Positions 2,193 through 63,375 of a DNA stretch of 64,000 nt are shown here, piece by piece; position 1 is the first letter of the stretch, and the number at the start of each line of letters is the position of its first letter. This DNA comes from an uncultured delta proteobacterium. Lineage in GTDB: Bacteria > Desulfobacterota > Binatia > Binatales > Binataceae. Below the pieces are notes generated by a model. The model did no database searches. It worked only from the letters and a program-made list of their open reading frames with translations, and had not been told where the DNA came from. Location: positions 27,485 to 91,484 of the forward strand of contig CAVXXK010000001.1 in assembly GCA_963765675.1 (NCBI GenBank). Direction: 5' to 3'. A program made the position numbers and the translations under genes.

Positions 2193-3317
2193 ATGCGCAC
2201 AGCCCCATCCATCCGTCCGTCACTTTGGTTGCTCTCCGGCGCAATGGTTGTGCTGACCTGCGCACTCTGCGCGCCCGCGCGTGCCGCCAACGCGAAACCC
2301 TTTGCGCTTCAGGAAACCATCGCGGTGCCGGGCAAGCCGCTGACCGGCTTCGATATTTCGTGGGTCGATCCTAAAACCCATCAGCTCTATCTCTCCGATC
2401 GATCCAACAACTCGATTGACATCTTCGATACGCGCACCCTCAAGTTCATCGCGCGAATCGGCGGGTTCGTAGGCAATGGGCCGGGCGGCTACGATCACGG
2501 CGGACCCAACGGCGTCGTCGTAATCGACTCGCCACATGAGGCGATCGCCGGTGACGGCGACAGTACGGTCAAGATGATAGACCTCGACGCCAAGCCGCCT
2601 AAAATCGCCGCCACGATTCCCACGGGAGGCACGGAGCGCGCTGACGAGCTTTCTTATGACGCGGCCGACGGCCTCGCGATGGTTGCGAATCCGGGCGAGA
2701 AGCCGCCGTTCGTTTCGTTCATCTCAACCAAGTCAAACAAGGTCATTGGCAAGATCGACTTTCCCGACGCGACCGACGGCCTGGAGCAATCGGTCTGGGA
2801 TCCGAGCCGCGACCTTTTCTATCAGGTGGTGCCCGAGCTCAAGCACGGCGATGGCGCGATCGCCGAGATCGATCCCAAGACCATGAAAGTCACTCGCAAA
2901 TTTGTGGTCCGCGAATGTCACGGCGCCGGCCTGACCCTCGGTCCCGACGGCAAGCTCCTCATCGGATGCACCCGAAAACAGTCCGTCGTGATGGACGCGA
3001 TGACGGGCAAAGTCGTCGCTGAGACACCAAAAGTCTCCGGCTCCGACGAGGTCTGGTACAACTCCGGCGACGGCCGTTACTACCTGGCTGCGGTGCGGGA
3101 TCCGGCGGGTCCGGTGCTCGGAATTATCGATGCGAAGACCAACACCTGGGTCGAAAATCTCGCCACCGCCTATCCCGCCCACTCAGTCTCCGCCGATCCC
3201 TCGAATAACCGGGTCTTCGTCCCGATGGGCCCGAATCAAACGAGCTTCGACACCGATCCGGCAAAGCATCTCGACTGCGCAGGCGGATGTATCGGGGTGT
3301 ACTCGGAGAAGCCTTAG
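2193..3317 (+). CDS. Secreted YVTN/YncE-like beta-propeller repeat protein
   Basis: Start chosen at the ATG at 2193, which has GAGGAT 6 nt upstream. The N-terminus MRTAPSIRPSLWLLSGAMVVLTCALCAPARAANA is signal-peptide-like. Repeated …D..T.K.I..I… propeller blades match the YVTN repeat family. Confidence 0.6.
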   Translation: MRTAPSIRPSLWLLSGAMVVLTCALCAPARAANAKPFALQETIAVPGKPLTGFDISWVDPKTHQLYLSDRSNNSIDIFDTRTLKFIARIGGFVGNGPGGYDHGGPNGVVVIDSPHEAIAGDGDSTVKMIDLDAKPPKIAATIPTGGTERADELSYDAADGLAMVANPGEKPPFVSFISTKSNKVIGKIDFPDATDGLEQSVWDPSRDLFYQVVPELKHGDGAIAEIDPKTMKVTRKFVVRECHGAGLTLGPDGKLLIGCTRKQSVVMDAMTGKVVAETPKVSGSDEVWYNSGDGRYYLAAVRDPAGPVLGIIDAKTNTWVENLATAYPAHSVSADPSNNRVFVPMGPNQTSFDTDPAKHLDCAGGCIGVYSEKP

Positions 3318-3387
3318 CGCGCAGCACGGTGCGAACTGATCTGCTCTCTTCCAATGAGATTGGGAGAGGGAATAGGCGGCCGTGCCG

Positions 3388-4428
3388 CTAATGCTCGAGC
3401 AGCTTCGAGAGGGCTTTGGCGGTGTACTCTACCAGCGGGATCACACGGTCGTAGTCCATTCGCACTGGACCCACAATAGCGAGGCTGCCAACCGGCGTTG
3501 CTCCAGTGGCATATGAAGCCGCGATAACGCTGAGGCCCGCCAGGCGCGCGTCGTCGTTTTCCGAACCGATCGATACCGTAAGCCCGCGCCGGGCGAGACT
3601 GCGCTCTAGCAGATCGAGCAGCGCGGTCTTGTCGTCGAGCGCGCGTAGCAGCTCGCGCATCCGCTCGGGATCGGAAAACTCCGGCTGCTCGATAGCCTGC
3701 AGGCTGCCATCGACGTAAAGCTCCGTGCGGCTCGCATGTTCGGCGACCGCGCCGCCCAGAGCCAGCGCGTCGCGCACGAAACGGTCGTACACCGCGCGCT
3801 CCTCGTGCAGGCGCTCTTCGATCCAGCGCCGCGCTTCATCCAGCGTGCGTCCGGCCAGCGACTCGTTCAGATACCGCGCCATCCGATCGAGCTCGTCCTG
3901 CGAATGGTCGCGATCAGTCTCGACGATATGGTTCTGCACCTGTCCCGCCGCCGCGACAAACATCGCGAGCACCTGCCGCTCGCGCAGGCGCACAAAGTTA
4001 ACCCGCTCGAGCATCATCGATTCCAGCCGCGGGCCCATCACCAGCGCGGCCTGCCCGGTAAGGAGCGCCAGCAGCTTGGGCGTGTCGCGCATGATATCGT
4101 CCAAATCACGCGTGCGGGTCGAATAATGCAGCTCAATCTGCGCGCGATCCTCGAATCCGATCCGCGAGACCAGGCTGTCGACGTAATAGCGATAACCCTT
4201 GTCGGTCGGAACCCGTCCCGCCGAGGTATGCGGCTGTCGCAGGTAGCCCCCGTCCTCAAGCTCCGCCATCATGTTGCGCACCATCGCGGAGCGCACCCCG
4301 AGAGGATGCCGTGCGACGATTTGCTGCGAGCCCACAGGCTCCGCGGTCGCGATAAATTCCTGCACCGTCGCGAGCAGCAGCGCCTGTCGCCGTGCGGAGA
4401 GCGCTTTGGTTTCGATTTCCTGGGTCAT
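3388..4428 (-). CDS. hrcA: Heat-inducible transcriptional repressor HrcA
   Basis: MTQEIETKALSARRQALLLATVQEFIATAEPVGSQQIV… is a typical HrcA winged-helix N-terminus followed by the GAF-like C-domain. The start was taken at the internal Met at codon 39 of the track ORF. No recognisable CIRCE (TTAGCACTC-N9-GAGTGCTAA) was found in 4429-4587. Confidence 0.85.
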   Translation of the reverse strand: MTQEIETKALSARRQALLLATVQEFIATAEPVGSQQIVARHPLGVRSAMVRNMMAELEDGGYLRQPHTSAGRVPTDKGYRYYVDSLVSRIGFEDRAQIELHYSTRTRDLDDIMRDTPKLLALLTGQAALVMGPRLESMMLERVNFVRLRERQVLAMFVAAAGQVQNHIVETDRDHSQDELDRMARYLNESLAGRTLDEARRWIEERLHEERAVYDRFVRDALALGGAVAEHASRTELYVDGSLQAIEQPEFSDPERMRELLRALDDKTALLDLLERSLARRGLTVSIGSENDDARLAGLSVIAASYATGATPVGSLAIVGPVRMDYDRVIPLVEYTAKALSKLLEH

Positions 4429-4587: not shown

Positions 4588-6198
4588 ATGGCGAAAGCGC
4601 GAAAGACAGCCAAGCCGCGGAAGATTTTCGTTCCGGTGGTTCCACAAGGCGCGACTTGGATCGAAAGCGACAGCTACGACCGCCGCGCCTGGAGCGAGAT
4701 TCTGTCCGGCACTCCTGCGTTCAAGGACCTGACCGAGGCGGGCGGCGCGCTGGTCCCGCACTTCGACGCGCTGCTCGCGGATTTTTTCCTCGCGCTGTTC
4801 AAGTTCAACCTCGTATGGCACAAGCCCGGCGCCGTGCGCCGCGCGGCTGCCCTCAACCGCACAATCCTGGATGAAATTTTGCCTTCGCCCGCTTTCGAGG
4901 CGCTGAAAAACCGCACTCTGCTCGAAGAAGACAAGGCCGCGATCGCGGCGATTGTGCTCGGCGAGCGGGCGCTCGAAATGATTCGCAGCGAACGCTTCCT
5001 GAATCGGCGCGAGATGGTCGATCTGTGGGATCTCGAGCATCAGGAACAGGACCTCGCCGCGCGCGCCGACGCGCTCAAGACGATCCAGGAGATGACCGAG
5101 AAGCCCGAAGAGGAAGGCGCCGGCGGCAATCCCAAGGCGAGCGACGACGCAAAAAAGAAGATGGCTGCGATGCTCGAAACGGCGGCGCGCGCCGCGCAGG
5201 TCTCCGAGGCGCGGCTCAATCAGAAATCACGGCAGGTCGAGAGCGATCTCAAGAATAGCGATCACACCGAACTGCGCCGGATGCAGCTCAAAGCCGGAGA
5301 ACTCGCCGCCGAGATCGATCGCGCCGCCGAGGACAGCCACGATTTCAGCCGCGAGTTCGGGCAAGGCGGACGGATGAACGCTGGCGAGCGGCTCGAGCTG
5401 GGACGCCATCTGGCGAAAAGCCGCAAGCTCGGCGAGCTGGCGCGGATGGTCGGCCGCATGAAACAGGACGCGCGCGCGATTCGCCACAAGACGCTCGAGC
5501 GCGGCGTCGCCGAAGCCTACGATATCGAGCGCGGCGCCGACCTCGGCAGGATGATCCCGTCGGAGCTGGTCGCGATGCATCATCCAATTCTCGCGATCGA
5601 TTTCCGTCGCCGTCTGCTCGAATCCGATCTTCTCCAATACCGGCTGCGCGACGACGAGCAGAAGGGCAAGGGCCCGATGATCGTTTGTATCGACGTCAGC
5701 TCCTCGATGCAGGGGGACAAGGAGCTGTGGGCGAAGGCGGTGGGGCTGACGCTGATGGATATCGCGCGGCGCGGGCGGCGCCTTTTTCGCGCCGTGATGT
5801 TTTCCTCGGGCGACACGAGCCTCAAGGTGCTCGATCTGAATCGCGAGCGGCGCTATCAACCCGAGCTCGCGAAGGTGATCGAGATGGCCGAATATTTTCC
5901 GGGCGGCGGCACCGATTTTCAGCAGCCGCTCGACGCTGCCGTGGCGCTGCTCGAAGAGCGCAAGCTGAAGCGCGGCGATATCGTGATAATCACCGACGGA
6001 GAATCGCAAGTCGCGCCCGAGTGGCTCGCGCATCTGAAAGAGCGCAAGGAAGCTTTGCAATTTTCGATCTTCGGCGTGCTCGTCGATGTCGGATCGTCGG
6101 AGATGTCGTCGCTGCGGCAATTCGCCGACCGGATCACGTCGGTAAAAACGCTAAGCGACTCCGCCACCCGCGACATCTTTCTGCACGTGCAATCATGA
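4588..6198 (+). CDS. von Willebrand factor A (VWA) domain protein (CoxE/ViaA-like)
   Basis: 536 aa with a C-terminal VWA fold. It carries the MIDAS motif D-V-S-S-S-M (…MIVCIDVSSSMQGDKELW…) and …IVIITDGES…. GGAGG lies 9 nt upstream of the ATG. No MoxR-type ATPase partner is present in the window. Confidence 0.75.
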   Translation: MAKARKTAKPRKIFVPVVPQGATWIESDSYDRRAWSEILSGTPAFKDLTEAGGALVPHFDALLADFFLALFKFNLVWHKPGAVRRAAALNRTILDEILPSPAFEALKNRTLLEEDKAAIAAIVLGERALEMIRSERFLNRREMVDLWDLEHQEQDLAARADALKTIQEMTEKPEEEGAGGNPKASDDAKKKMAAMLETAARAAQVSEARLNQKSRQVESDLKNSDHTELRRMQLKAGELAAEIDRAAEDSHDFSREFGQGGRMNAGERLELGRHLAKSRKLGELARMVGRMKQDARAIRHKTLERGVAEAYDIERGADLGRMIPSELVAMHHPILAIDFRRRLLESDLLQYRLRDDEQKGKGPMIVCIDVSSSMQGDKELWAKAVGLTLMDIARRGRRLFRAVMFSSGDTSLKVLDLNRERRYQPELAKVIEMAEYFPGGGTDFQQPLDAAVALLEERKLKRGDIVIITDGESQVAPEWLAHLKERKEALQFSIFGVLVDVGSSEMSSLRQFADRITSVKTLSDSATRDIFLHVQS

Positions 6199-6698: not shown

Positions 6699-6713
6699 GC
6701 CTCGCCCTCTGTC

Positions 6714-6885
6714 TGATTCCTCGCCCAGTATGGGAGAGGTTAGGTGAGGGACCTTATTCAGCGCGGCGCTCGAGCGCCGCGCGATTATAAAGAAAGCTCT
6801 GAGCAAGGCCGCCCTCACCCACGCGTCACGATGCTTGCGAAAAGAATCGCAAGCATCGCGCCACGCCGCCCTCTGCCGGGGGAGC
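6714..6885 (+). repeat. Structured dispersed repeat, copy 1 of 3 (MITE/REP-like, ~175 bp)
   Basis: CTGATTCCTCGCCCAGTATGGGAGAGGTTAGGTGAGGGACCTTATTCAGCGCGGCGC…CCCTCACCCACGCGTCACGATGCTTGCGAAAAGAATCGCAAGCATCG… is nearly identical to the reverse complement of 22160-22348. Its first ~75 bp recur at 34219-34294 in reverse orientation. It contains internal palindromes (GATGCTTGCGA…TCGCAAGCATC; GCGCGGCGC…GCGCCGCGC). Confidence 0.85.
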
Positions 6886-6920
6886 GTACCCAGCAGCGAT
6901 CCGCAGCAGAAAAAATAAAA

Positions 6921-6951
6921 GGGCCGGCGATTTGATCGCCGGCCCTTTTCC
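6921..6951. terminator. Rho-independent (bidirectional) terminator between the GNAT gene and the convergent diiron-protein gene
   Basis: GGGCCGGCGAT-TTG-ATCGCCGGCCC is an 11-bp perfect stem. It is followed by TTTTCC and preceded by AAAAATAAAA. Confidence 0.8.
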
Positions 6952-9509: not shown

Positions 9510-10886
9510 GTGGACATCGGGGATAAAAGCGAAAAGATCGGGCTCCGGCCTCTTCTAATCTACGCACAGGGACAGACCGGCCTCAACCTGTGCGCGACGC
9601 TTTCCGCGATGCATCTGCTGTATTTCTACAGCGATCGGCGCGGATTGTCGCCGGCGCTGGCCGGACTCGCATTTTTTATCGCGCTGGTGCTCGACGCTCT
9701 GACCGACCCGCTGGTCGGCAATATTTCGGACAGTGCGCGCTTCAAGTCGGGACGCCGGCGGCCGTTTTTTCTGACCGCGATCCCGATGGGTATCTGCTAC
9801 TACCTGCTGCTCTCGCCGCCGGCGTTGAACAAGGGACTGTTCGCGTGGTTCCTGGTTTTCTACTTCCTGCAACTGACCTCGCGGAAGTTTTACGAGACCG
9901 CGTACGGCGCGCTGATGCCCGAGTTGACGCTCGACTACGACGAGCGCACCCGCCTTTCTACCTATCGGCAACTGTTCGGTACGGCGGGCGATATCAGCGG
10001 AGCGCTGCTGCCGTTCGCCGCCGCCTGGATTTTCGCGAAGGGACTCGATTTCCAGATCACCGGCGGCGTCTGCGCGGTGATCGTCGCGGGCGGTGCTCTG
10101 TTCGCCTACGTCAATCTGCGCGAGCGACCGGGCTTCGCCGACCGCGAACGCTTCAACCTGCGCGAGTCGATGAAGAGCGCGCTCGCGAACCGCCCGTTTA
10201 TCATCCTGATGCTCGCGACCACGCTCGCGATCATGGCGATCAATATCCCGACCGTCCTGATCCGCTTCCTGGCGAAGTATTGGGTGCATGACGAAAACGC
10301 GGCCGCACGGTGGCTTATCGCGTACTTCGCGGGCTCGATGGTTTCGTATCCGTTCTGGTTTCGGATCACGGTGCGGTTCGAGAAAAAGCCCGCGTACGTC
10401 GTCGCGATGCTCGCCAATGCGAGTTGCTCGCTGATGTTCATGCTGCTCACTCCGCGCAACACGCTGTGGATGCTGGTGCTGATGGTGCTCAGCGGATTTT
10501 CCGCGATCGGAATCTGGGTGACGCAGATGTCCGCCGCCGCCGACGTGATCGAATGGGACGAAGAGCGGACCGGACGCCGGCAGGAAGGCGCGTACGGCGG
10601 AATCACCTCGATGGGAATAAAAATCGCGACCGCGCTCTCACTGGTCCTGGTCGGTCCGGTGATGGGATGGATCGGCTACCGGCCCGGGATGGCCGAGCTG
10701 CCGCGCGCGGCGGCCGAAAATCTGCGCACGCTGTTCGCGGTCGCGCCGGCGATAATTTATGTGCTGAGCGCGATCGTGTTTGCGCGCTATCCAATCACCC
10801 GCGCCAGCCATCGCGCGATGCGCGATCGCCTGGCCGCCCGCGGCGCTCCCGGCGAAGAAGCACCCGCCGAAAAATCGATCGCGTGA
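9510..10886 (+). CDS. MFS transporter, glycoside-pentoside-hexuronide (GPH) cation symporter family (MelB-like)
   Basis: …SEKIGLRPLLIYAQGQTGLNLCATLSAMHLLYFYSDRRGLSPALAGLAFFIALVLDALTDPLVGNISD… matches the GPH N-terminal signature, with ~12 TM segments. The track ORF starts at the ATG at 9450, but that overlaps the divergent lipoprotein start. The GTG at 9510 is proposed instead, so the start is uncertain. Confidence 0.75.
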   Translation: MDIGDKSEKIGLRPLLIYAQGQTGLNLCATLSAMHLLYFYSDRRGLSPALAGLAFFIALVLDALTDPLVGNISDSARFKSGRRRPFFLTAIPMGICYYLLLSPPALNKGLFAWFLVFYFLQLTSRKFYETAYGALMPELTLDYDERTRLSTYRQLFGTAGDISGALLPFAAAWIFAKGLDFQITGGVCAVIVAGGALFAYVNLRERPGFADRERFNLRESMKSALANRPFIILMLATTLAIMAINIPTVLIRFLAKYWVHDENAAARWLIAYFAGSMVSYPFWFRITVRFEKKPAYVVAMLANASCSLMFMLLTPRNTLWMLVLMVLSGFSAIGIWVTQMSAAADVIEWDEERTGRRQEGAYGGITSMGIKIATALSLVLVGPVMGWIGYRPGMAELPRAAAENLRTLFAVAPAIIYVLSAIVFARYPITRASHRAMRDRLAARGAPGEEAPAEKSIA

Positions 10887-10975
10887 AAGGTCTGCTTGAG
10901 CCTGTTCGCCAGCGGCGGTAAACAACGTCAATCCGCCAGCACATGAGCCCGCACAAACGCAGGCACCGCCCTACT
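10807..10975 (+). repeat. Direct repeat DR1 (3' end of the MFS gene plus ~90 bp downstream), left boundary of the Rhs island
   Basis: CCATCGCGCGATGCGCGATCGCCTGGCCGC…GGCGAAGAAGCACCCGCCGAAAAATCGATCGCGTGA…CGGCGGTAAACAACGTCAATCCG… recurs at 15153-15320 at ~85% identity. That second copy includes a remnant encoding …GHRAMRDRLAARGAPGEEASAEKSIA*. Confidence 0.85.
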
Positions 10976-10989
10976 GCGCCAACGGCAAC

Positions 10990-12549
10990 GTGACCACCTA
11001 CACTTACGATCCGATGGATCGCCGCGCATCAAGGACCGATGCGCTGGGCGCCGTGGAGAGCTACGCCTACGACGGAATGAGTAACCTTACCAGCCACACG
11101 GATCGCAATGGGAACGTAACCAGCTACAGCTACGACGGGCTGAACCGCAGGACGTTTGCGGGTTTTGGATACAACGGCAGCGGGTATCAGAGCACGATTA
11201 ACTATACGTGGGACGGGGGCGACCGCCTGACGCAGGTGGTGGATTCAATTGCGGGAACCATCTCGCGGACTTACGACGGGCTCGACGACCTGACCGACGA
11301 GCAGACGCCGACGGGCGAGGTCAGCTACGCGTATGACAACGCGAGGAGGCGGACGTCGATGACGGTGGTGGGGCAGCCTGCGGCGGCCTCCTACGCGTGG
11401 GACAACGCCAACCGATTGACCGGAATTACCCAGGGGAGCGCGTCGGTTGCGTTCAATTATGACAGCGCGAGCCGAAGGACTACGCTGACGCTGCCCAACG
11501 GGATCGAGGTGGGGTATAGTTACGACAACAACTCGCGGATAAGCGGGATGACCTGGACGTTGGCCGGCAACCAGATCGGAGACCTCGAGTACGATTACGA
11601 TGCGGATGGGCGCGTGGTCGAGAAGACGGGGAGCCTCGCGCAGACCAACCTGCCGCAGCCGGTGACCGGAAATACCTTCAATGCCGATAACGAGATGACG
11701 GCGTTCAACGGCACTCCGATGACTTACGACGCAAACGGCAACCTGCTCAACGATGGGAGCAACGCCTACGCTTGGGATGCGCGCAATCATCTGAGCGCGA
11801 TCAGCGGTGCGAATGCAGCCAGTTTCGTCTATGACCCGTTGGGGCGGCGGATCAGCAAGACTATCGGGAGTACGACGACGAGCTTCCTGTACGATGGGCT
11901 CAACCCAGTACAGGAACTTCAATCGGGCGCGCCGAGCGCGAACATGCTGACGGGGCTCGGGATCGACGAATACTTCCAGCGCAGCGATGCCTCGGGTGCG
12001 AGCAGCTACCTGACAGATGCGCTGGGCAGCACGCTGGCGCTCGCAAACCCGGCGGGCGGCTTAGCGACCAGCTATACGTATGATCCGTTTGGGACCACTG
12101 CGGTGTCGGGTTCGGGTACAAATCCCTTCCAGTTCACCGGCCGAGAAAATGACCTCAACGGTCTTTATTATTTGCGTGCCCGTTACTACAACCCAGCGTT
12201 GCAGCGATTCCTGAGTCAGGATCCCATAGGAGTCCGAGGCGGGATGAATCTTTATGGCTATGTCGGAAATAACCCTGTAAACTCTTTCGATTTGTTGGGA
12301 TTGGGCGGTACACCCTCGACGACGCCCACGCCGACCAGTTGTCCAACGCCGATTCCCGTGGATCCAACCCAGGCACCAACAACATGCCAAAAGCACCTAG
12401 CCTGTGAAATAGGATGGGAGGGCACATGTGACCAGTGCAACGAATTCGAGAATCCCCAGCCGGTATTTGTTTGTCACGTTGGCTGTGTCATTACAGGGGC
12501 GGTAGTATGCGAGATTGAGTTTCCCTGCAGCCTCCGGGGTAATGACTGA
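10990..12549 (+). CDS. Rhs/YD-repeat protein fragment (5'-truncated): YD repeats, RHS core end (…DPxGL) and an ~80-aa Pro/Thr-linker plus Cys-rich C-terminal tip
   Basis: Repeated YDxxGR/NxxSYxYD motifs and the core signature …GLYYLRARYYNPALQRFLSQDPIGVRGGMNLYGYVGNNPVNSFDLLGL. The C-terminal tip reads GGTPSTTPTPTSCPTPIPVDPTQAPTTCQKHLACEIGWEGTCDQCNEFENPQPVFVCHVGCVITGAVVCEIEFPCSLRGND. The reading frame opens at 10900 inside DR1 and has no N-terminal Rhs region. The first in-frame start is the GTG at 10990. Confidence 0.85.
   Translation: MTTYTYDPMDRRASRTDALGAVESYAYDGMSNLTSHTDRNGNVTSYSYDGLNRRTFAGFGYNGSGYQSTINYTWDGGDRLTQVVDSIAGTISRTYDGLDDLTDEQTPTGEVSYAYDNARRRTSMTVVGQPAAASYAWDNANRLTGITQGSASVAFNYDSASRRTTLTLPNGIEVGYSYDNNSRISGMTWTLAGNQIGDLEYDYDADGRVVEKTGSLAQTNLPQPVTGNTFNADNEMTAFNGTPMTYDANGNLLNDGSNAYAWDARNHLSAISGANAASFVYDPLGRRISKTIGSTTTSFLYDGLNPVQELQSGAPSANMLTGLGIDEYFQRSDASGASSYLTDALGSTLALANPAGGLATSYTYDPFGTTAVSGSGTNPFQFTGRENDLNGLYYLRARYYNPALQRFLSQDPIGVRGGMNLYGYVGNNPVNSFDLLGLGGTPSTTPTPTSCPTPIPVDPTQAPTTCQKHLACEIGWEGTCDQCNEFENPQPVFVCHVGCVITGAVVCEIEFPCSLRGND
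11150..12075 (+). repeat. Internal direct repeat (Rhs core-encoding segment), copy 1
   Basis: ~925 bp at ~90% identity to 13603-14525. Similarity ends at …GCGACCAGCTA (protein …LATSY). Confidence 0.8.
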
Positions 12550-13602: not shown

Positions 13603-14525
13603 CAGTTGCATTCGGCTACAACGGGAGCGGCTATCAGAGCACGATCGGCTACACCTGGGACGGGGGTGACCGTCTGACGCAGGTGGTCGATTCAATTGCG
13701 GGAACGATCGCGCGGACCTATGACGGGCTCGACGACCTGACCGACGAGCAGACGCCGCCGGGCGAGGTCAGCTACGGGTATGACAACGCGAGGCGGCGGA
13801 CGTCGATGACTGTTGTGGGGCAACCTGCGGCGGCATCATACGCGTGGGACAACGCGAACCGGCTGACCGGAATTACCCAAGGGAGCGCTTCGGTTGCGTT
13901 CAATTATGACAGCGCGAGCCGAAGGACAACGCTGACGCTGCCCAACGGAATTGTGGTGGCGTATAGTTATGATAAAGATTCGCGGGTAAGCGCGATGACC
14001 TGGACGTTGGCTGGCAACCAGATTGGAGACCTCGAGTACGATTACGATCCGGACGGACGCGTGATCGAGAAGACGGGGAGCATGGCGGCGACCAATCTGC
14101 CGCAGCCGGTGACTGGAAACGCCTTCAATGCGGACAACGAGATGACGGCGTTCAACGGTACCGCGTTGAGCTACGATCCGAACGGCAACCTGCTCAACGA
14201 TGGGAGCAACACCTACGCCTGGGACACGCGCAATCATCTGAGCGCGATCACGGGCGCAAATACCGCGAGCTTCGTCTATGACCCGTTCGGGCGGCGGATG
14301 AGCAAGACGATTGGAGGAGCGGCGACGAGTTTCCTCTACGACGGCCTAAATCCCGTGCAAGAGCTTCAAGCTGGAACGCCGAGTGCAAACATGTTTACGG
14401 GACTGGGGATCGACGAATACTTTCAGCGTACCGACGCCTCGGGTGCGAGCAGTTATCTCACAGATGCGCTCGGCAGCACACTCGCATTGGCAAACTCGGC
14501 AGGCAGCCTCGCGACCAGCTACAAC
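13603..14525 (+). repeat. Internal direct repeat (Rhs core-encoding segment), copy 2
   Basis: See 11150-12075. Confidence 0.8.
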
Positions 14526-14672
14526 AAGGCCTTGGTTAGCTGTCTTGAAGGTTTGCGTGACGATCCGCACAACTGGCCTTTCCCGCCGGATCCAAGTGAC
14601 GATCCGGGAGACATTGGCGCACATGAGTATAGAGAAGGCGCAATCTATATATTCCAGCATGGGGTGTGGTGA
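13683..14672 (+). CDS. Second Rhs/YD-repeat fragment (truncated at both ends; no RHS core end; short divergent tail)
   Basis: The frame opens at ~13549 with no start until the ATG at 13683. Its protein is ~90% identical to residues ~60-360 of fragment 1 up to …LATSY. It then diverges into NKALVSCLEGLRDDPHNWPFPPDPSDDPGDIGAHEYREGAIYIFQHGVW*. This is probably a recombinational remnant (pseudogene-like). Confidence 0.7.
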   Translation: MVDSIAGTIARTYDGLDDLTDEQTPPGEVSYGYDNARRRTSMTVVGQPAAASYAWDNANRLTGITQGSASVAFNYDSASRRTTLTLPNGIVVAYSYDKDSRVSAMTWTLAGNQIGDLEYDYDPDGRVIEKTGSMAATNLPQPVTGNAFNADNEMTAFNGTALSYDPNGNLLNDGSNTYAWDTRNHLSAITGANTASFVYDPFGRRMSKTIGGAATSFLYDGLNPVQELQAGTPSANMFTGLGIDEYFQRTDASGASSYLTDALGSTLALANSAGSLATSYNKALVSCLEGLRDDPHNWPFPPDPSDDPGDIGAHEYREGAIYIFQHGVW

Positions 14673-15028: not shown

Positions 15029-15152
15029 TGGCTTCGCGCCCTAACGGCTGCATCGAAGTCGCGCCCGCAATATAAACACGCCGCCTCGAATGCGTGGTTG
15101 AGCGCGAGACCGAGCGTCCCGCTCACGATGCTGGCAGCGGAATAGGGTACGG

Positions 15153-15320
15153 CCATCGCGCGATGCGCGATCGGCTGGCCGCACGAGGCGCGCCCGGCGA
15201 AGAAGCATCCGCCGAAAAATCGATCGCGTGAGAGTCGGCTTGAGACTGTTCGCGAGCGGCGGTAAACAACATCAATCCGTTGGCACGTGAGCTCGCACCA
15301 GCGAAAGCAGCGCCATACTG
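15153..15320 (+). repeat. Direct repeat DR2 (degenerate copy of the MFS 3' end), right boundary of the Rhs island
   Basis: See DR1. It lies immediately upstream of the flavoenzyme gene start at 15329. Confidence 0.85.
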
Positions 15321-15328
15321 GACCTACA

Positions 15329-22159: not shown

Positions 22160-22348
22160 GCGCCTGCCGATACCCTCTCCCACCGGGAGAGGGCGACGCG
22201 GCGCGATGCTTGCGATTCTTTTTCGCAAGCATCGTGACGCGTGGGTGAGGGTGCTGCTCCGCTCTTCACTTTTATAATCGCGCGGCGCTGCGCGCCGCGC
22301 TGAATAAGGTCCCTCACCTAACCTCTCCCATACTGGGCGAGGAATCAG
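22160..22348 (-). repeat. Structured dispersed repeat, copy 2 of 3 (inverted relative to copy 1)
   Basis: The reverse complement matches 6714-6885 almost base for base. It contains an additional palindrome CCCTCTCCCACCGGGAGAGGG. Confidence 0.85.
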
Positions 22349-22376
22349 ACGGCGGATGCGCGTGCCGGAGGCGTGG

Positions 22377-29293: not shown

Positions 29294-29473
29294 TCAGGCG
29301 AGCGCGAGGAACGAGCAGACGAGATAGGCGAGCGTGATGAGCCCAAACGCCACGCCGGGAAGCTCGGTAAGGAAGCTATTCTGCGCGTAACGGATGTAGT
29401 CAGTCGGCGCCGCCGTCTCAGTCGCGGGCGTCAGTCCTGCAAACCGGGTACGGTTGGTGGTCGTCGCATTCAT
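29294..29473 (-). CDS. Small tail-anchored membrane peptide, paralog A (59 aa) of a tandem triplicated family
   Basis: MNATTTNRTRFAGLTPATETAAPTDYIRYAQNSFLTELPGVAFGLITLAYLVCSFLALA*. RBS GGGAGA lies 11 nt upstream of the ATG. It is below the 60-aa cutoff and so is absent from the ORF track. Its differences from paralog B in the C-terminal half are almost all synonymous (gcg/gcc, aat/aac, ctt/ctg, acc/acg, ccc/ccg). Confidence 0.7.
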   Translation of the reverse strand: MNATTTNRTRFAGLTPATETAAPTDYIRYAQNSFLTELPGVAFGLITLAYLVCSFLALA

Positions 29474-29506
29474 GGTCGTAATTCTCCCGTGAGTTATCTT
29501 TTCGTG

Positions 29507-29686
29507 TTATGCCAATGCCAGCAGGGACATCGCGATGTACGCCAGCGTGATAATTCCGAACGCCAGGCCCGGAAGCTCCGTCAGGAAGCTGTTCTGGGCG
29601 TAACGGATGTAGTCGATCGGCGCCGCCGTCTCAGTCGCGTGAGTCAATCCTGCAATCTCGGTACGGTTGGTGGTCGTCGCATTCAT
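29507..29686 (-). CDS. Small tail-anchored membrane peptide, paralog B (59 aa)
   Basis: MNATTTNRTEIAGLTHATETAAPIDYIRYAQNSFLTELPGLAFGIITLAYIAMSLLALA*. It has its own RBS (GGGAGAAGA). Confidence 0.7.
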   Translation of the reverse strand: MNATTTNRTEIAGLTHATETAAPIDYIRYAQNSFLTELPGLAFGIITLAYIAMSLLALA

Positions 29687-29717
29687 GGTCGTCTTCTCCC
29701 TTCGATTGTTTCGGTTG

Positions 29718-29897
29718 TTATGCCAAGGCCAGCAGGGAAGTCACGATGTACGCCAGCGTGAGCAGCCCAAACACGAGTCCCGGCACTTCGTCGAGCCAGC
29801 TGTACTGCGCCAGCCGAACGGCATCGGTCGACGCCGCGGCTTCTGCCACTTCCTCATACCCAGCCAGCCTTGCCTCATTGGTCGTCGTCGCGTTCAT
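29718..29897 (-). CDS. Small tail-anchored membrane peptide, paralog C (59 aa; most divergent)
   Basis: MNATTTNEARLAGYEEVAEAAASTDAVRLAQYSWLDEVPGLVFGLLTLAYIVTSLLALA*. RBS GGAGGA lies 7 nt upstream. It is the first gene of the array, next to the AT-rich control region. Confidence 0.65.
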   Translation of the reverse strand: MNATTTNEARLAGYEEVAEAAASTDAVRLAQYSWLDEVPGLVFGLLTLAYIVTSLLALA

Positions 29898-30209
29898 TTT
29901 AAGTTCCTCCGAAACTTGACTTCGGGAGGTAAAGCAGGACCTGTGCCATTGGAAAAACTCTCGATTTCAGAAGGATTTTGCTTTCGCAGCCTGTGCATAA
30001 TCTCAGTCAAAAGCCAAATAGTTAAGGATTTGTAAGGATTTTTCTGGAATCGCGTTTTGCGATACGCAAATTTCTTGTTTTCGACATTCGCGTGAATTTT
30101 CGGTTTTTGCGAAACACTGCAAGCAATCCAATGCAGTAAACTGATTGCATTAGACCCTCCTTCACGGAGTCTTTTAACCGTCATCACAATCTGCGACAGT
30201 GCCTTCATC
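29898..30209. promoter_or_regulatory. AT-rich divergent control region between the peptide array (-) and the ICMT-family methyltransferase (+)
   Basis: GC content is far below the genome average. It contains palindromes and repeats (TTGCGATACGCAA; TTTTGCGA x2; CAATGCAG…CTGATTGCATTAG). Confidence 0.5.
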
Positions 30210-34063: not shown

Positions 34064-34218
34064 CAGGCCTGCTTCGATACCGCGGAACAGGCGCAGATAT
34101 TTATTTTACAATCTAGCGGGAATTATGAAGCCCGCTCGATTTCAGAGATCATTTCTTCCAGAGTCTCGGCGCCGCGTCAACTCCGAGAACGATAGCCCGC
34201 GTTTTCAAGGCACCTTTT

Positions 34219-34294
34219 AATCGCGCGGCGCTGGCACGCCGCGCTGAATAAGGTCCCTCACCTGGCCTCTCCCTTTCAGGGCGAGGAATCAGAG
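34219..34294 (-). repeat. Structured dispersed repeat, partial copy 3 (left-end ~75 bp only)
   Basis: The reverse complement CTCTGATTCCTCGCCCTGAAAGGGAGAGGCCAGGTGAGGGACCTTATTCAGCGCGGCG…GCGCGATTAAAAG matches the first ~75 bp of copies 1 and 2. Confidence 0.75.
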
Positions 34295-35156: not shown

Positions 35157-35949
35157 ATGACAGCCCCGCACTATGGCGACGTATCGATCGCCGTGAATGA
35201 AACCGACCATGTCGCACTCGCCGAGATTCATCGGCCGCCGCACAACTTTTTCGATCATCAATTGATCAAGGATCTCGCCGACGCGTTCGAAGCCCTCGAC
35301 ACCGACGCCGGATGCCGCGCGATCTTGCTCGCAGCGGAGGGGAAATCATTTTGCGCAGGCGCGGACTTCAGCAAGCGTCAGACGCCCGCGGCCGGCGCCA
35401 CGCCCGCGACCGGGAATCCGCTCTACTCGGAAGCGGTGCGGCTCTTTCGATGCAAGAAGCCTGATAGTCGCGGCGATCCAGGGTGCCGCGATCGGCGGAG
35501 GCTTCGGCCTTGCAATGGCCGCCGACTTTCGCGTCGTCACTGCCGACGCGCGCTTCGCAGCGAACTTCGTCAAGCTCGGAATCCATCCGGGCTTCGGACT
35601 GACCTATACGCTGCCGCGGATTATCGGTATCCAGAAAGCGAATCTGATGTTCTACACCGGGCGCAGGATCAACGGCGAAGAAGCGCTTGCGTGGGGACTC
35701 GCTGATTCGATCGTCGCGCCAGAAAAGCTCCGCGAGACCGCTCGTGCACTCGCCGCCGAAATCGCGGAGAACGCGCCGCTTGCCGTCCTCTCGACGCGCG
35801 CGACGATGTGCGCGGGCCTCGCCGACGCGGTCAAGGCGCAGACCGATATCGAGTTCCGCGAACAGAGCTGGCTGATGCGTACCGAGGACCATCGCGAAGG
35901 CGTCAAGGCTGTCTCCGAGCGCCGCCCCGGCCGCTTCCAGAGCCGCTGA
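35157..35949 (+). pseudogene. Enoyl-CoA hydratase/isomerase family gene with a 1-nt insertion frameshift near 35460-35470 (possible sequencing error)
   Basis: ATG at 35157 with GAGGAA 8 nt upstream. MTAPHYGDVSIAVNETDHVALAEIHRPPHNFFDHQLIKDLADAFEALDTDAGCRAILLAAEGKSFCAGADFSKRQ…RLFRCKKP is followed by junk. The +1 frame continues …IVAAIQGAAIGGGFGLAMAADFRVVTADARFAANFVKLGIHPGFG… (track ORF 35515-35949). Confidence 0.8.
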
Positions 35950-37013: not shown

Positions 37014-39459
37014 TCAGTTCAGAATCGTGCGTTCCGTGCGCGGGCCTGTCGCAGGCTTTTCTGGCGCAGGCGCGGCGGCTTGCGCGGCGTCGCCATTGAC
37101 CAGCGCGGCGGCCAGGACTTCATCGACGGTGTCGACGAAGATCATTTTCAGCTCGCCACGGACCTCTGCGGGTATGTCCTCGAGGTCGCGCTCGTTTCGA
37201 CGAGGCAGAATGATCGTCTTGATTCCTGCGCGACGTGCCGCGAGCACTTTTTCTTTGACTCCGCCGACCGGCATCACCTTGCCCCGCAGCGTGATCTCGC
37301 CAGTCATCGCGACTTCCGCCCTGATCGGACGGCCGCTCAGGAGCGACGCGAGCGAAGCCGCGAGCGTCACACCAGCGGAGGGACCGTCCTTGGGAATCGC
37401 GCCGGCGGGAACGTGAATGTGGATGTCCGACTTTTCGAAAAAGTCGGCCGGGATTCCAAGTCGCTCGGCGCGCGAGCGCACGTAGGACATCGCGGCCTGC
37501 GCCGATTCCTTCATCACGTCGCCCAGCGACCCGGTCAGCATAAGACCCTTTTGCCCCGCCATCCGGGTGGCTTCGATAAACATGATCTCGCCGCCGTTGG
37601 GCGTCCATGCAAGCCCGGTTGCGACACCGGTTTCGTTGGTGCGTTCGGCGACTTCGGAGAAAAACCGCGGCAGCCCGAGATAGCGCGAGACGTCTTCCGC
37701 CGTGACCTGCGTCGGCATCGCACCGCCTTCGGAGGTGGCGCGTGCGATTTTGCGGCATACGCGCGCGATCTCGCGCTCGAGGTTGCGCAGCCCCGACTCG
37801 CGCGTGTAGCTGCGGATAATCTCGGCGATCGCGCCGGCGGTGAACTCGATCTTCGACTCGCCGAGTCCGTTTTCTTCAAGCTGCTTGCGAATCAGGTGGC
37901 GCTCGGCGATTTGCAGCTTTCTCTTCCTCGGTGTAACCCGGCAGCTCGAGCACTTCCATTCTGTCCCGCAGCGCCGGCGGAATCGGATCGAGCATATTGG
38001 CCGTGGTCAGGAACAGAACCTTCGAGAGATCGAACGGCACATCGAGATAGTGGTCGGAGAACGAATTGTTCTGCTCGGGATCGAGCACTTCGAGCAGCGC
38101 CGAGGCGGGATCGCCTCGGAAATCCATCCCGAGCTTGTCGACCTCGTCAAGGATGAAGAGCGGATTGTTCGAGCCCGCGTTGCGCAGCCCTTGGATAATC
38201 CTGCCGGGCAGCGAGCCGATGTAAGTGCGGCGATGGCCGCGGATCTCGGCTTCGTCGCGGATACCGCCGAGCGACAGGCGCACGAACTTGCGTCCGAGCG
38301 CGCGCGCGATCGATTTGCCCAGCGAAGTTTTGCCGGTTCCCGGGGGGCCGACGAAGCATAGGATCGGACCCTTGGTGTCTTTCTTGAGCTTGCGCACCGC
38401 GAGGAATTCGAGGATGCGCTCCTTAATCTTGTCGAGGTCGTAATGATCCTCGTCGAGCACCTTGCGCGCGTTGGCGATATCGAGGTTGTCCTCGGTCGAG
38501 ACGCTCCACGGCAGGCTCACCAGCCAATCGATATACGTGCGGACGACGGTATGCTCCGCCGATTCGGGCGGGATCATGCGCAGGCGTTCGAGTTCCTTGT
38601 CGGCGGCCTTGCGCGCCTCGGGGGGCATCTTGGCCTCTTCGATTTTCTTCTCCAGCTCGTCGATCTCGCTGGTGCGCGCATCGCCTTCGCCGAGTTCTTT
38701 CTGGATCGCCTTGAGCTGCTGGCGCAGATAGTACTCGCGCTGATTCTTGTTGAGCTCGGTCTGGACCTGCGACTGGATTTTGTGGCCAAGCTCGAGCAGC
38801 TCGATTTCGCGGCCCAGGATAGCGATCAGCTTTTCCAGGCGCGCGCGTACGTCAACCGTGCCGAGCAGATCCTGCGATTCCTCGACCGCGATCTTCAGAT
38901 ACGACGCGACCATGTCGGCCAGCCGCCCCGGCTCGCGAACCTTCATCGCCTGCACCTGCAATTCGTCAGGCAGGTACGGCACGAGCGAAACGAACTTCGA
39001 GAATTGGCTCACCAGATGCGCGTGCAGCGCTTCGATTTCCTTGTCGGGTGCGGATTGATCGACCACGCGGGTCGCGCGCGCGATAAAATATGGCTCGGCC
39101 TGGATATAGTTGGTCAGCTCGATCCGCGCGATTCCCTGCACCAGCACCCGAACGCTCTGATCCGGGTAGCGCAGCATCTTGAGAATCTGCACCGCGGTGC
39201 CGTATTGGAACAGCCCGTCGGCGTGAGGAGATTCCTCTTCGGGATTCTTCTGCGCCGCGAGCGCGATAATCTTTTGCGTCTGTCCGACATCCTCGATCAA
39301 CTTGAGCGAAGACGCGCGAGAGACCAAAAACGGATGAATCTGGTTAGGAAAGATTACGATACCGCGCAGCGGCAGTACCGCCAGGACATCGGGGATCTCA
39401 ACCTTGCTGAGATCTTCCTCGATATCGAAACCTTTTTCCCCTTTGGGTTTATCCGCCAT
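37014..39459 (-). pseudogene. lon: ATP-dependent Lon protease, frame interrupted by a 1-nt insertion in an A/T triplet at ~37915-37923 (almost certainly a sequencing error)
   Basis: The LON N-domain plus AAA+ domain (…CFVGPPGTGKTSLGKSIARALGRKFVRLSLGG…, …LFILDEVDKLG…) runs to …PGYTEEEKA and then junk. The C-terminal proteolytic domain (…[58 protein letters not shown]…, catalytic Ser-Lys) is in the +1 frame (track ORF 37014-37718). Removing one A of GAGAAAGCTG restores …[22 protein letters not shown]…. Confidence 0.85.
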
Positions 39460-41745: not shown

Positions 41746-42516
41746 GTGACAATGCCCGCTGCGATAATTATCGAGAAGATCCGCCGCGCCGGCGCGCCCT
41801 ACGGACTCAACCTTGTCGCGACCGCCGCGGTCGAGCGCTATGACGCCGCGGTAACAGAACCCTATCGCGCGCGCGCAATCGCTCCAGACGCGCGCACGAT
41901 CATCGTGGTCGCCAATGGCGGCGGTGAATTATGGGCCGCGCTGAAGCGCCACGCCGACAGCCATCCCGGATGGTGGCAGCGCGCCAATCCGCTCGACGAC
42001 TTCACGCACGAGATAGTCGAGCACGAGATCGCACCCGCCGCACGCGCCGGCGGCGCAAACGTGCGCATCGTTTATCCATTCATGAACAACGCCGCGACGC
42101 TTAATTTTATCGAGCTCGGAAAAGCCGCAGGCCTTGCCGGGCCGAGCATCCTTGGCGTCGTCGTGCATCCGGTATACGGACCGTGGATCGCGTTTCGCGC
42201 GGCAATCCTGATCGATCAATCGATCGACGCGCCGGGTGCCGCGGTCGCGTTCGATCCCTGCCCCTCGTGCACCGTGCGCAGTTGCATTCCCGCCTGCCCG
42301 GTTGGCGCGGTCGCGTTTCCAACCGGATGGGACATCCCCAGATGCCTAACGCATCGCGTCGAAGACGAACCCGACTGCGCGCCGCGATGCCACGCGCGCG
42401 CGGGATGCGTGCTCGGCCCCGAGCATCGCTATCCCGACGACGAACTCGCCCATCATCAAGCGCGCGCCCTGCGCGCGATGCGCCCGTGGTACGAGAAGAA
42501 CGTGAAGCCGAAGTAA
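41746..42516 (+). CDS. Putative Fe-S cluster-binding protein (Cys-rich ferredoxin-like C-terminal region)
   Basis: …DPCPSCTVRSCIPACPVGAV…CLTHRVEDEPDCAPRCHARAGC… are cysteine clusters. Function unknown. Confidence 0.4.
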   Translation: MTMPAAIIIEKIRRAGAPYGLNLVATAAVERYDAAVTEPYRARAIAPDARTIIVVANGGGELWAALKRHADSHPGWWQRANPLDDFTHEIVEHEIAPAARAGGANVRIVYPFMNNAATLNFIELGKAAGLAGPSILGVVVHPVYGPWIAFRAAILIDQSIDAPGAAVAFDPCPSCTVRSCIPACPVGAVAFPTGWDIPRCLTHRVEDEPDCAPRCHARAGCVLGPEHRYPDDELAHHQARALRAMRPWYEKNVKPK

Positions 42517-42556
42517 AACAAAACCCAACCGGCCACAAAGACACCAAGACACGAAG
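42513..42556 (+). repeat. Left inverted repeat flanking the GxxExxY gene
   Basis: GTAAAACAAAACCCAACCGGCCACAAAGACACCAAGACACGAAG. The reverse complement of 42964-43013 (CTTCGTGTCTTTGTGTCTTAGTGGCCGCCCGG…TTGTTTTTTAC) matches it with few mismatches. Confidence 0.75.
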
Positions 42557-42952
42557 ATGAAAGGGTTTGATCCGATTCCTGCCGCGACCGAAGAGGCTGC
42601 TGCCATCGTGATCGACGCTGCCTTTGCCGTTCACCGCTCACTTGGACCGGGATTGTTGGAATCGATCTATGAGGCATGCCTGGCGCACGAGCTCTTTCTC
42701 AGACACATTCCGTTTCAAACGCAGGTCTCGCTTCCGATTCAATACAAAGACCTGAAATTGGAAAGTGCGCTCAGATTGGATCTTTTGGTGGCGGATTCTC
42801 TCGTCGTCGAACTGAAGGCGACCGAGAGAATGTTGCCCCTATATAAAGCGCAACTGCTGACCTATCTAAAGCTATCGGGACTCAGGCTCGGTCTCCTGAT
42901 CAATTTCAATGTCGGTATAATCAAAGAAGGAATTAAACGAATCGTGCGTTAG
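42557..42952 (+). CDS. GxxExxY family protein (PDDEXK-like nuclease fold)
   Basis: …AAAIVIDAAFAVHRSLGPGLLESIYEACLAHELFLRHIPFQTQVSLPIQYKDLKLESALRLDLLVADSLVVELKATERMLPLYKAQLLTYLKLSGLRLGLLINFN… carries the eponymous G-x-x-E-x-x-Y. The stop overlaps the palindrome CGTGC-GTTA-GCACG. Confidence 0.8.
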   Translation: MKGFDPIPAATEEAAAIVIDAAFAVHRSLGPGLLESIYEACLAHELFLRHIPFQTQVSLPIQYKDLKLESALRLDLLVADSLVVELKATERMLPLYKAQLLTYLKLSGLRLGLLINFNVGIIKEGIKRIVR

Positions 42953-42963
42953 CACGATTCGCC

Positions 42964-43013
42964 TTCGTGTCTTTGTGTCTTAGTGGCCGCCCGGTCTTCG
43001 TCTTGTTTTTTAC
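42964..43013 (+). repeat. Right inverted repeat flanking the GxxExxY gene
   Basis: See 42513-42556. Its 3' end overlaps the hemB stop codon. Confidence 0.75.
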
Positions 43014-63279: not shown

Positions 63280-63375
63280 CTAATTCTTCTTTTTCCTCTT
63301 CTTTCTTTTCTCCCCCTCCCCCCTCTCCCCCCCTCACCCCCTCCCCCCCCCTCTCCCCCCCGGAGATCTCCCCGA
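63280..63375. repeat. ~95-nt polypyrimidine (C/T) tract with multiple C5-C8 runs (poly-G on the transcribed minus strand)
   Basis: CCTAATTCTTCTTTTTCCTCTTCTTTCTTTTCTCCCCCTCCCCCCTCTCCCCCCCTCACCCCCTCCCCCCCCTCTCCCCCCCGGAG contains only three purines. It explains the spurious Pro-rich +strand ORF 63196-63408. Confidence 0.9.

Follow-up and report, generated by a model that had tools for sequence, protein, structure and literature searches.

Arms of a BoxC-like intergenic repeat bracket DUF559 nuclease genes in Binataceae

The stretch of DNA analysed here, 64,000 nucleotides (nt) of contig CAVXXK010000001.1 from an uncultured member of the Binataceae and hereafter called the window, contains three copies of a structured intergenic repeat whose arms, in related genomes, enclose a gene for a small nuclease of the DUF559 family. 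The window elements very probably form a Binataceae-specific subfamily of the BoxC/PIT/triplex-motif (TM) class of repeats, and the association of DUF559 genes with TM arms is, in our judgement, almost certainly real and non-random. We consider it reasonably probable that the copies in the window, which lack the gene, belong to a repeat-plus-nuclease system resembling repetitive extragenic palindromic (REP) sequences and their REP-associated tyrosine transposases (RAYTs). That the DUF559 nuclease causally maintains or mobilises the arms is a more tentative proposal, which we place slightly short of an even chance.

Known since 1992 and present in hundreds of genomes, BoxC/PIT/triplex-motif repeats are associated with instability of the genome around them; their function, origin and mobility factor have not been found. 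The DUF559 nuclease is the first candidate partner enzyme for this orphan repeat class, and our literature searches returned no paper tying DUF559 or its Escherichia coli representative ycjD to BoxC or triplex repeats. If the link is functional, it would give a role to a very large orphan family (>7,700 close homologs in one search) that counts ycjD and an N. gonorrhoeae protein of known structure among its members. It would also explain the origin of BoxC/triplex repeats and the genomic instability at them, through a PD-(D/E)XK hydrolase that recognises a hairpin or triplex DNA fold, with the window elements as Binatota members that lack the gene. This lead is directly testable in E. coli K-12. 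The window alone is of modest interest: its repeats are few, old, structured and low in copy number, lie downstream of genes and belong to a class already known, though in a new phylum.

A structured repeat of the triplex-motif class

The analysis confirmed three copies at the places given in the original prediction (Table 1), in intergenic DNA beside gene ends. Each lies just past the stop codon of the upstream gene, at a gap of 7-32 nt (2 nt for copy 3 by the boundaries of Table 1), and is co-oriented with that gene, which encodes a GNAT acetyltransferase, a ROK kinase and an enoyl-CoA hydratase for copies 1, 2 and 3, respectively. The palindromes first noted within the element are all present, the last hairpin of copy 1 being degenerate. 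Near identity of copies 1 and 2 over about 175 bp, as originally described, proved slightly generous because a linker of about 25 nt varies between two conserved blocks: the opening ~84 nt and the closing ~85 nt differ little, and the full alignment (6708-6886 on the + strand with 22352-22172 on the - strand) has 164 identities in 188 columns, or 87%. Copy 3, correctly recognised as a partial copy that keeps the first part of the element, matches the other two over its first ~80 nt only (79-82% over ~93-95 aligned columns, flanks included). The flanks of the three copies are unrelated (50-57% in global alignment). Repeat finding, a profile hidden Markov model and a covariance model found no further copies in the 64 kb, and the composite motif CCTCNCCC-N3-6-GGGNGAGG-N3-6-GGNGAGGG occurs three times in the window compared with 0.00 expected from 100 shuffles.

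The class to which we assign these elements was described by Bergler (1992), Hoyne/Maher (2000) and Holder et al. (2015; PMC4666352). Its E. coli form, TMECO, follows the strict pattern CCCTCNCCC N3-6 GGGNGAGGG N3 GGGNGAGGG with 9-nt stems, has TTA or CCG as the second loop and frequently a single stem mismatch, and occurs as solo units and inverted pairs, with 23 counted in E. coli K-12 and 3610 in 262 proteobacterial genomes (PMC4666352). The ITxF definition requires three blocks C-G-G with stems of 6-15 nt, loops of 1-6 nt and at most one mismatched triplet (PMC4666352). The window arms fit it, with CCTCGCCC/GGGAGAGG/GGTGAGGG as the blocks, loops of 5 and 3 nt and one G/A mismatch. They read tCCTCGCCC-N5-GGGAGAGGt-TA- and do not match the strict TMECO pattern because their stems are 8 nt instead of 9; among the sequences examined, the only exact match to that pattern lies in E. 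coli, beside ycjD.

Beyond the layout of C-stem, G-stem and G-stem, the window elements and TMECO have in common a second loop of TTA or CCR (TTA in copies 1 and 2, CCA in copy 3), a conserved G/A stem mismatch as in TMECO type 'A mm' (PMC4666352) and a strictly intergenic, dispersed, highly conserved and low-copy distribution (about 20 per genome) as solo units and inverted pairs. Both are also given to small deletions that retain a hairpin, and TMECO loci are more variable than control sites (PMC4666352). The window lineage differs in a 3' extension of its own, made up of ACCTTATTCAGCG and a GC hairpin, in an additional hairpin that interrupts the right arm, in a host phylum, Binatota, outside the coverage of Holder et al., and in a sense bias downstream of genes, none being reported for E. 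coli. Finally, arms of the Binataceae family bracket a DUF559 nuclease gene, whereas the published work on TMECO reports no mobility gene in association with it.

The family extends well beyond the window. An invariant 21-mer, GGTGAGGGACCTTATTCAGCG, common to all three window copies, occurs at 53 loci in 23 metagenome-assembled genomes (MAGs), with 1-5 exact copies in each, in a scan that covered one genome per species; the loci are labelled mostly Candidatus Binatus or Binataceae and otherwise as uncultured 'delta proteobacterium' or 'Proteobacteria' MAGs. A sister MAG that is about 92% identical to the window over kilobases, MFD06092.bin.1.174, holds five copies with the exact 21-mer core in at least 3.8 Mb. 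The density of about 5 per 100 kb that had been extrapolated to the whole genome does not hold at 1-5 exact copies per MAG; the copies are thus clustered locally in the window, and the family as a whole has few copies, as BoxC has in E. coli. The sister genome contains orthologs of copy 1 (locus L027) and of copy 3 (L025), the latter truncated identically. The window thus belongs to a Binataceae genome, and copies 1 and 3 are older than the split from the MFD06092.bin.1.174 lineage. No empty site was found for a window copy, both comparable sites being filled in the sister genome.

In an alignment of 56 copies, the arm is built of modules: hairpin 1, a box that is invariant, a GC hairpin whose sequence varies and GATT(C/A)AA. 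Two subfamilies can be told apart: type A (TCTTCCCCTCTCCC...), present in most MAGs, and type B, the window type (TCTGATTCCTCGCCC..., with 3' modules), present in five. Applied to 487 kb of fetched DNA, a covariance model recovered 103 copies, in which 94.3% of the stem cells are paired. The element is a dispersed, structured, intergenic and modular repeat that occurs as solo arms and inverted doublets. Of the initial description as MITE- or REP-like, where MITE stands for miniature inverted-repeat transposable element, the likeness to mosaic repeats of REP/BIME type stands, with modules, solo arms and inverted doublets, and the likeness to a MITE gains no support, a clear target-site duplication not having been found. 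Nor is the element a duplicated gene fragment, the other origin then considered.

Type A arms are often nested in an outer inverted pair (CTCTCC-loop-GGAGACCTTTGCATAAC ... GTTATGCAAAGGTCTC-loop-), forming palindromes of up to about 330 nt. Such nested structures at L006, L013, L029, L049, L051, L053 and L137 (4820-5150) add a further mosaic layer.

The full elements fold far better than shuffled sequences (RNA z = -7.65 and -4.87; DNA z = -8.66; Watson-Crick pairing only), bearing out the structured character first ascribed to them. Four helical parts are predicted: a 5' hairpin, CCTCGCCC/GGGAGAGG (helix 1); a long-range pairing, GGTGAGGG/CCCTCACC, that encloses the GC hairpin; the GATGCTTGCG hairpin; and a 3' hairpin, CCCTCTCCC/GGGAGAGGG. 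In the covariance model, the GC hairpin (hairpin 2) is 92% paired and its inner pairs change in a compensatory way. We rejected covariation as proof of helix 1, where the CT/GA stem can pair in a register shifted by 2 columns as well, which inflates the counts; only the inner pairs of the GC hairpin are informative. As single-stranded DNA, the C-stem, G-stem and G box can fold back twice into a hairpin or an intrastrand triplex.

Strong and conserved predicted structure, compensatory changes in the GC hairpin and an orientation bias relative to genes (see below) would also suit small non-coding RNA genes or cis-regulatory RNAs. We regard this explanation as extremely improbable, and the terminator and small-RNA roles first suggested gain no support. 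Rfam 15 gives no match to the element, either at the gathering score or at E values up to 10, its only match in the window being a tRNA elsewhere. The element has no associated promoter or terminator signals, its palindromic layout lets either strand fold equally well, its modules are reshuffled in the manner of mosaic DNA repeats, and purine-motif triplexes do not form in RNA (PMC4666352).

DUF559 genes between inverted arms

In Binataceae, tblastn detected seven DUF559 open reading frames (ORFs) in loci anchored on the element, and all seven are flanked by arms. In six of them the geometry is the same: a co-oriented arm lies about 55 nt 5' of the ATG, and an inverted downstream arm overlaps the stop codon, giving an arm-bracketed unit of about 0.55 kb. 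The encoded protein of 119 amino acids matches Pfam DUF559 (E = 5e-41) and, below its cut-off, the NCBIfam YcjD-type model. Its closest solved structures are an 'endonuclease-like protein' of N. gonorrhoeae (3HRL, 1e-32) and the homing endonuclease I-Bth0305I (3R3P, 2e-4), and D51, E62, D64 and H68, the acidic residues and histidine that a Vsr-like PD-(D/E)XK site should have, are invariant. Two of the seven genes are frameshifted. Three (L007, L012 and L045) occupy one common orthologous site, and the other four lie at different sites.

Most contigs with Binatus-type DUF559 genes are only about 1-2 kb long, which suggests assembly breaks at these places, as expected for repeat-flanked or multi-copy DNA.

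Further lines of evidence start from the DUF559 gene instead of the repeat. First, in a protein-alignment scan of metagenomes, which yielded 80 DUF559 loci (76 clusters when grouped at 80% amino-acid identity), full Binatus-type arms in the same geometry accompany each of the six closest homologs.

Second, flanking inverted repeats score far above shuffles in 62 of the 76 DUF559 loci with enough flank. In distant lineages the arm sequence differs and the architecture is kept, with a hairpin CCTCTCCC/GGGAGAGG, an optional GC hairpin and GGTGAGGG.

Third, TMs occur around these genes in the expected orientations: a sense TM within 260 nt upstream at 42 of 72 loci, an antisense TM within 260 nt downstream at 51 of 78, and both at 34, counted with a relaxed motif pattern whose background frequency, 38 motifs in 202 kb, would put about 2 in each class. 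A canonically oriented TM is found in 57 of the 76 protein clusters. At 6 of 49 loci, a second copy of the same arm lies elsewhere in the few kilobases available.

Fourth, similar arrangements are found in well-known genomes. In E. coli K-12 (L134, NC_000913.3 1351150-1351840), ycjD, a DUF559 gene, ends ...RRSPSP (stop), and its TGA lies in the loop of a TM-type hairpin, CCCTCTCCC-TGAAAGA-GCGAGGGG, followed by a duplicate of about 45 nt of the gene's 3' end. An exact TMECO of type A (CCCTCGCCC-CTCTG-GGGAGAGGG-TTA-GGGTGAGGG) lies about 170 nt past the ycjD stop, just upstream of fabI/envM; the ycjD-fabI region is the site of the first BoxC report, as cited in PMC4666352. In S. meliloti and Deinococcus proteolyticus, inverted repeats of about 50 nt with C-G-G motifs lie on both sides of the DUF559 gene. 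Lineage-specific C-G-G elements, full or partial/degenerate, adjoin it in Azospirillum, Picosynechococcus, Synechocystis and Sphingomonas, and in N. gonorrhoeae C-G-G-type elements stand beside it as direct repeats.

One survey lists DUF559 domain-containing proteins, without comment, as enriched among predicted targets of inversion (PMC9881135), a result that flanking inverted repeats would yield.

Across complete E. coli genomes, ycjD is a single-copy gene at one fixed locus, present in 3378 of 5426; it occurs in phylogroups A, B1 and C, with eefRABCD in its place elsewhere (PMC12817139). The number of TMECO per E. coli genome ranges from 1 to 27 (median 15), with 18 in K-12 and 1-2 in ST131 and NC101 (B2). 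The correlation between ycjD presence and TMECO number is partial, confounded by phylogeny and suggestive only; phylogeny alone would give the same pattern. Phage records returned just 2 weak matches to DUF559, so it is not a common phage gene, a Mu-like prophage of Binatus (described below) apart.

The window also contains a second small PD-(D/E)XK nuclease gene (42557-42952, + strand; 131 amino acids, low coding score), which matches Pfam PDDEXK_3 (E = 3.7e-40) and the NCBIfam 'GxxExxY protein' model (1.3e-41). It is bracketed by 47-nt inverted repeats (42515-42561 and 42958-43004, with CACAAAGACACCAAGACACGAAG), in the same layout as the DUF559 units.

Arm turnover, gene context and a possible role for the nuclease

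One Binatus DUF559 clade lies, in the opposite orientation, within a Mu-like prophage (Portal_Mu, Gp27-like), where it is placed between the genes for the large terminase and for the Gp27-like protein (loci L135-L138 on Binatus MAG contigs, and L057/L058). The prophage is kept in several Binatus genomes and carries many repeat copies in its intergenic regions. The place of this clade between terminase genes is a classic location for a homing endonuclease. DUF559 might be a free-standing parasite of that type: it would cleave doublets that lack the gene, and repair would copy the gene into them on the homology of the arms, the doublets themselves arising or spreading by other means. Such a parasite would account for a gene always placed exactly between two inverted arms, for the existence of gene-less doublets (L024, L035, L137 and window copies 1 and 2) and for decayed copies (L044, L045 and the 3' fragment beside E. 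coli ycjD). Elements of I-Bth0305I type (Vsr-like/EDxHD, 3R3P), which are among the sequence relatives, resemble the DUF559 unit in their related nuclease fold, small single-gene selfish unit and decayed copies. Unlike them, the DUF559 unit is not borne by an intron or intein, the structured inverted repeats that flank it are themselves dispersed, and it is single-copy per genome wherever this can be judged, down to the one fixed locus in 3378 E. coli genomes. The common orthologous site of L007, L012 and L045 looks vertical and RAYT-like, not invasive, and doublet centres have no obvious match to the ends of the DUF559 unit. On balance we think a homing parasite of doublets rather unlikely.

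The same prophages show signs of turnover, and the arms are polymorphic for insertions and deletions. Two prophage copies (L137 and L138) with flanks 99.5-100% identical differ by 206 nt, one having a full inverted doublet and the other a single perfect hairpin. This hairpin consists of the outer stem halves of the doublet, and the junction, the one clean case of presence and absence, is formed by a direct repeat of 8 nt, GGGAGAGG, which belongs to the stem itself. Slippage may have collapsed the palindrome, a process that Holder et al. describe for E. coli, or an insertion may have brought an 8-bp duplication with it. Further, a solo arm in one prophage lineage (L137) is absent from three homologous prophages with about 75% flank identity. 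A convincing target-site duplication was found nowhere, the three window copies included.

Read as a target duplication, the 8-nt repeat at the L137/L138 junction would suit a conventional MITE or REP moved in trans by a transposase encoded elsewhere (a DDE insertion sequence (IS), IS200/IS605 TnpA/TnpB or a RAYT); slippage between repeated stem halves explains the junction equally well. The element is small, dispersed and intergenic, with inverted arms, and the same genomes carry other, true MITE-like insertions. With mosaic repeats such as BIME, RIME, Correia and ERIC it shares its palindromic, modular build and nested insertions of other elements; it differs from them in its very low copy number and in lacking a cognate transposase and clear terminal inverted repeats with target-site duplication. 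The IS200/IS605 TnpA/TnpB pair proposed as a possible cognate in the original prediction was not found, nor was a RAYT or any other transposase, among the 60 of 63 predicted window genes compared with Pfam. Holder et al. saw no link to transposases, integrases or mobile elements near E. coli TMECO copies (PMC4666352). The REP head GTAG/CGTC is lacking, and every gene found between arms is DUF559. We consider mobilisation by a conventional transposase very improbable. A transposase was likewise rejected as the partner enzyme in relatives, where the bracketed gene encodes the DUF559 nuclease and not a Y1/IS200-like protein.

Other insertions have entered copies of the repeat. A MITE-like element of about 175 nt with ends GAGGGTGTCGAT...ATCGACCGCCTC and internal GTCATCCTGAGC...GAAGGATCTC (L025 2925-3105 and L043 ~5790-5860) sits in the hairpin 1 loop (CTGAA), in opposite orientations at the two loci; CTGAA seems to be duplicated at the insertion in L025. 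L025 also carries, at 3196-3440, a palindromic element of about 245 nt, TAGTGGGTCAGTTTGA...TCAAACTGACCCACTA, that is absent from the orthologous window site near 34200.

Outside DUF559 units, the position of solo and doublet arms relative to genes is not random. Of the copies between tandem genes, 20 have the sense and 6 the antisense orientation (binomial p = 0.009), and 15 copies lie in convergent and 4 in divergent regions compared with a background of 38 convergent and 50 divergent; these counts, a caution for any reading that leans on them, ours included, come from a home-made gene caller based on codon usage and include some orthologous loci, hence are not fully independent. The median distance of family copies from the upstream stop codon is about 30 nt. 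The orientation bias fits purifying selection against insertions on the promoter side, a coupling to the direction of transcription or replication, or a role in the 3' untranslated region (UTR).

A host-useful, REP-like element is the alternative that draws most directly on these positions: hairpins in the 3' UTR would protect mRNA 3' ends, modulate termination or bind nucleoid proteins, and the DUF559 link would be incidental, small and horizontally moving genes landing in or attracting such hairpins. The placement just past stop codons, the sense bias, the rarity in divergent promoter regions and the strong predicted folds agree with this, as does the fact that a genome about 8% diverged keeps two of the three window copies at the orthologous positions. 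Against it, no U-tract follows the hairpins of the element on the 3' side, and copy 1 needs a separate canonical terminator (Table 1). In E. coli, PIT/BoxC elements have neither promoter nor terminator activity (PMC4666352). The doublets are symmetric, both strands folding alike, and an incidental link fails to explain the roughly 20-fold, orientation-specific enrichment of TMs found in 57 of 76 clusters and several phyla. We therefore judge a host-useful element with an incidental DUF559 link unlikely. Solo copies may possibly have a purely host-beneficial 3'-UTR role, which would leave the gene association unexplained.

The reading we favour, of a repeat family with a partner nuclease, has an analogue in REP/RAYT systems. 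In both, short structured intergenic repeats are found singly and as inverted doublets, and per genome there is one small gene of nuclease type, bracketed by two inverted copies of a repeat that is dispersed elsewhere; the gene is apparently vertical and single-copy, as seen for E. coli ycjD and the common site of L007, L012 and L045. The likeness in singlets, doublets and the gene-flanking variant is one of analogy, not of membership. The enzyme here is a Vsr-like PD-(D/E)XK hydrolase instead of a HuH tyrosine transposase, the GTAG/CGTC head is absent from the arm alignments, and the arm measures ~75-90 nt with two hairpins compared with an imperfect palindrome of 20-40 bp. The fold has three elements (a hairpin plus a third strand), and copies number tens instead of hundreds.

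We infer a sequence of events in which the DUF559 nuclease would recognise a folded arm while the DNA is transiently single-stranded and would nick it. Repair, slippage or recombination at the nick could then leave arms copied, converted, collapsed or deleted, and copies would persist mainly just downstream of genes because they do least harm there. Vsr enzymes nick at G/T mismatches. It is a speculation that pairing of the C-stem with the second G box would present such a G/T mismatch at the conserved G/A position in the E. coli and window variants; in the commoner Binatus type A, the same pairing gives T/T instead of G/T. More broadly, DUF559/YcjD-type Vsr-like nucleases may be the cognate enzymes of BoxC/PIT/triplex-motif repeats throughout bacteria, a second system of REP/RAYT kind, an extension that we hold tentatively and with the balance tilting a little towards doubt.

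Several observations weigh against a partner nuclease that acts on the arms. A PD-(D/E)XK enzyme is a hydrolytic nuclease, for which strand transfer by itself is impossible. The 64-kb window contains no DUF559 gene, and no DUF559 gene was seen flanked by an exact arm of the window type (type B), the nearest case being L057 with a near-type-B hairpin. Both comparable window sites are filled in both genomes, so these copies are old and give no sign of recent movement. Around the prophage DUF559 genes, arm orientation is variable. In E. coli, O157:H7 has about 12 TMECO despite belonging to a phylogroup without ycjD, and B2 strains have 1-4. Finally, the TMECO single strand forms a stable triplex in vitro, and none was detected in vivo by Holder et al. 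(PMC4666352).

Feature coordinates and other observations in the window

Table 1. Copies of the repeat, their parts and the adjoining terminator, in window coordinates
Feature	Position	Strand	Remarks
Copy 1, full doublet (left arm, linker, inverted right arm)	6710-6886	+	GNAT gene stop at 6698, 12 nt before element start
Copy 1, left triplex-type motif: C-stem CCTCGCCC, loop AGTAT, G-stem GGGAGAGG, loop TTA, G box GGTGAGGG	6719-6750	+	
Copy 1, Binataceae-specific extension: invariant ACCTTATTCAGCG, GC hairpin GCGCGGCGC-TCGA-GCGCCGCGC (6761-6782), GATTATAAAG	6751-6792	+	Invariant alignment columns
Copy 1, right arm: CCCTCACC (6812-6819), inserted hairpin GATGCTTGCG-AAAAGAAT-CGCAAGCATC (6830-6857)	6812-6886	+	CCCTCACC is the complement of the G box
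Copy 1, end of right arm: degenerate terminal hairpin CCCTCTGCC..GGGGGAGCG	6869-6886	+	
Bidirectional rho-independent terminator hairpin, canonical	6913-6950	.	Outside the element, between copy 1 and a convergent AurF-like gene
Copy 2, full doublet	22172-22350	-	Between ROK kinase gene (ends 22377) and LysM gene (starts 22025)
Copy 2, left triplex-type motif	22311-22342	-	Identical to the copy 1 motif
Copy 2, right arm: inverted triplex-type motif CCCTCTCCC-ACCG-GGAGAGGG ... GGTGAGGG	22173-22251	+	+ strand reading; GATGCTTGCG hairpin (22205-22233) inserted in the second loop of the motif
Copy 3, solo arm of ~80 nt	34215-34294	-	Enoyl-CoA hydratase stop at 34296
Copy 3, motif CCTCGCCC-TGAAA-GGGAGAGG-CCA-GGTGAGGG	34286-34255	-	Followed by conserved box, GC hairpin and GATTAAAAGG

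The window segment 6885-6968, which includes the terminator beside copy 1, is absent from the orthologous locus L027, where about 11 nt stand in its place. At 63296-63362, an H-DNA-like, nearly pure pyrimidine tract of about 65 nt on the + strand (ttctttcttttctccccctcccccctctccccccctcaccccctccccccccctctcccccc) includes the complement of GGTGAGGG.

Two window genes are fragmented. The enoyl-CoA hydratase gene at 35515-35949 is present as a C-terminal fragment only, and Lon protease is divided between two ORFs, one with the N-terminal domain and AAA (37876-39459) and the other with Lon_C (37014-37718). Both may possibly reflect frameshifts, pseudogenes or assembly errors.

The window contains other repeats as well. 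Two RHS-repeat genes (10990-12549 and 13683-14672) have a 300-nt block in common at 90% identity, and conserved segments of about 175 nt (10807-10983 and 15152-15327; 81-93%) lie ahead of the first RHS gene and of the gene for a DAO oxidoreductase that comes after the RHS pair. At 29294-29903 lie three tandem repeats of about 212 bp, the second and third 86% and 60% identical to the first, each with a minus-strand ORF of 60 codons that has a positive coding score and no Pfam match.

A tRNA gene at 54149-54221 is followed by conjugative genes up to 63160, among them those for a TrwC relaxase/helicase (56001-58985), a TrwB-type coupling protein (58989-60800), a DUF2274 protein and a TrbC/VirB2 pilin; the segment 54149-63160 is probably an integrative conjugative element at a tRNA site.

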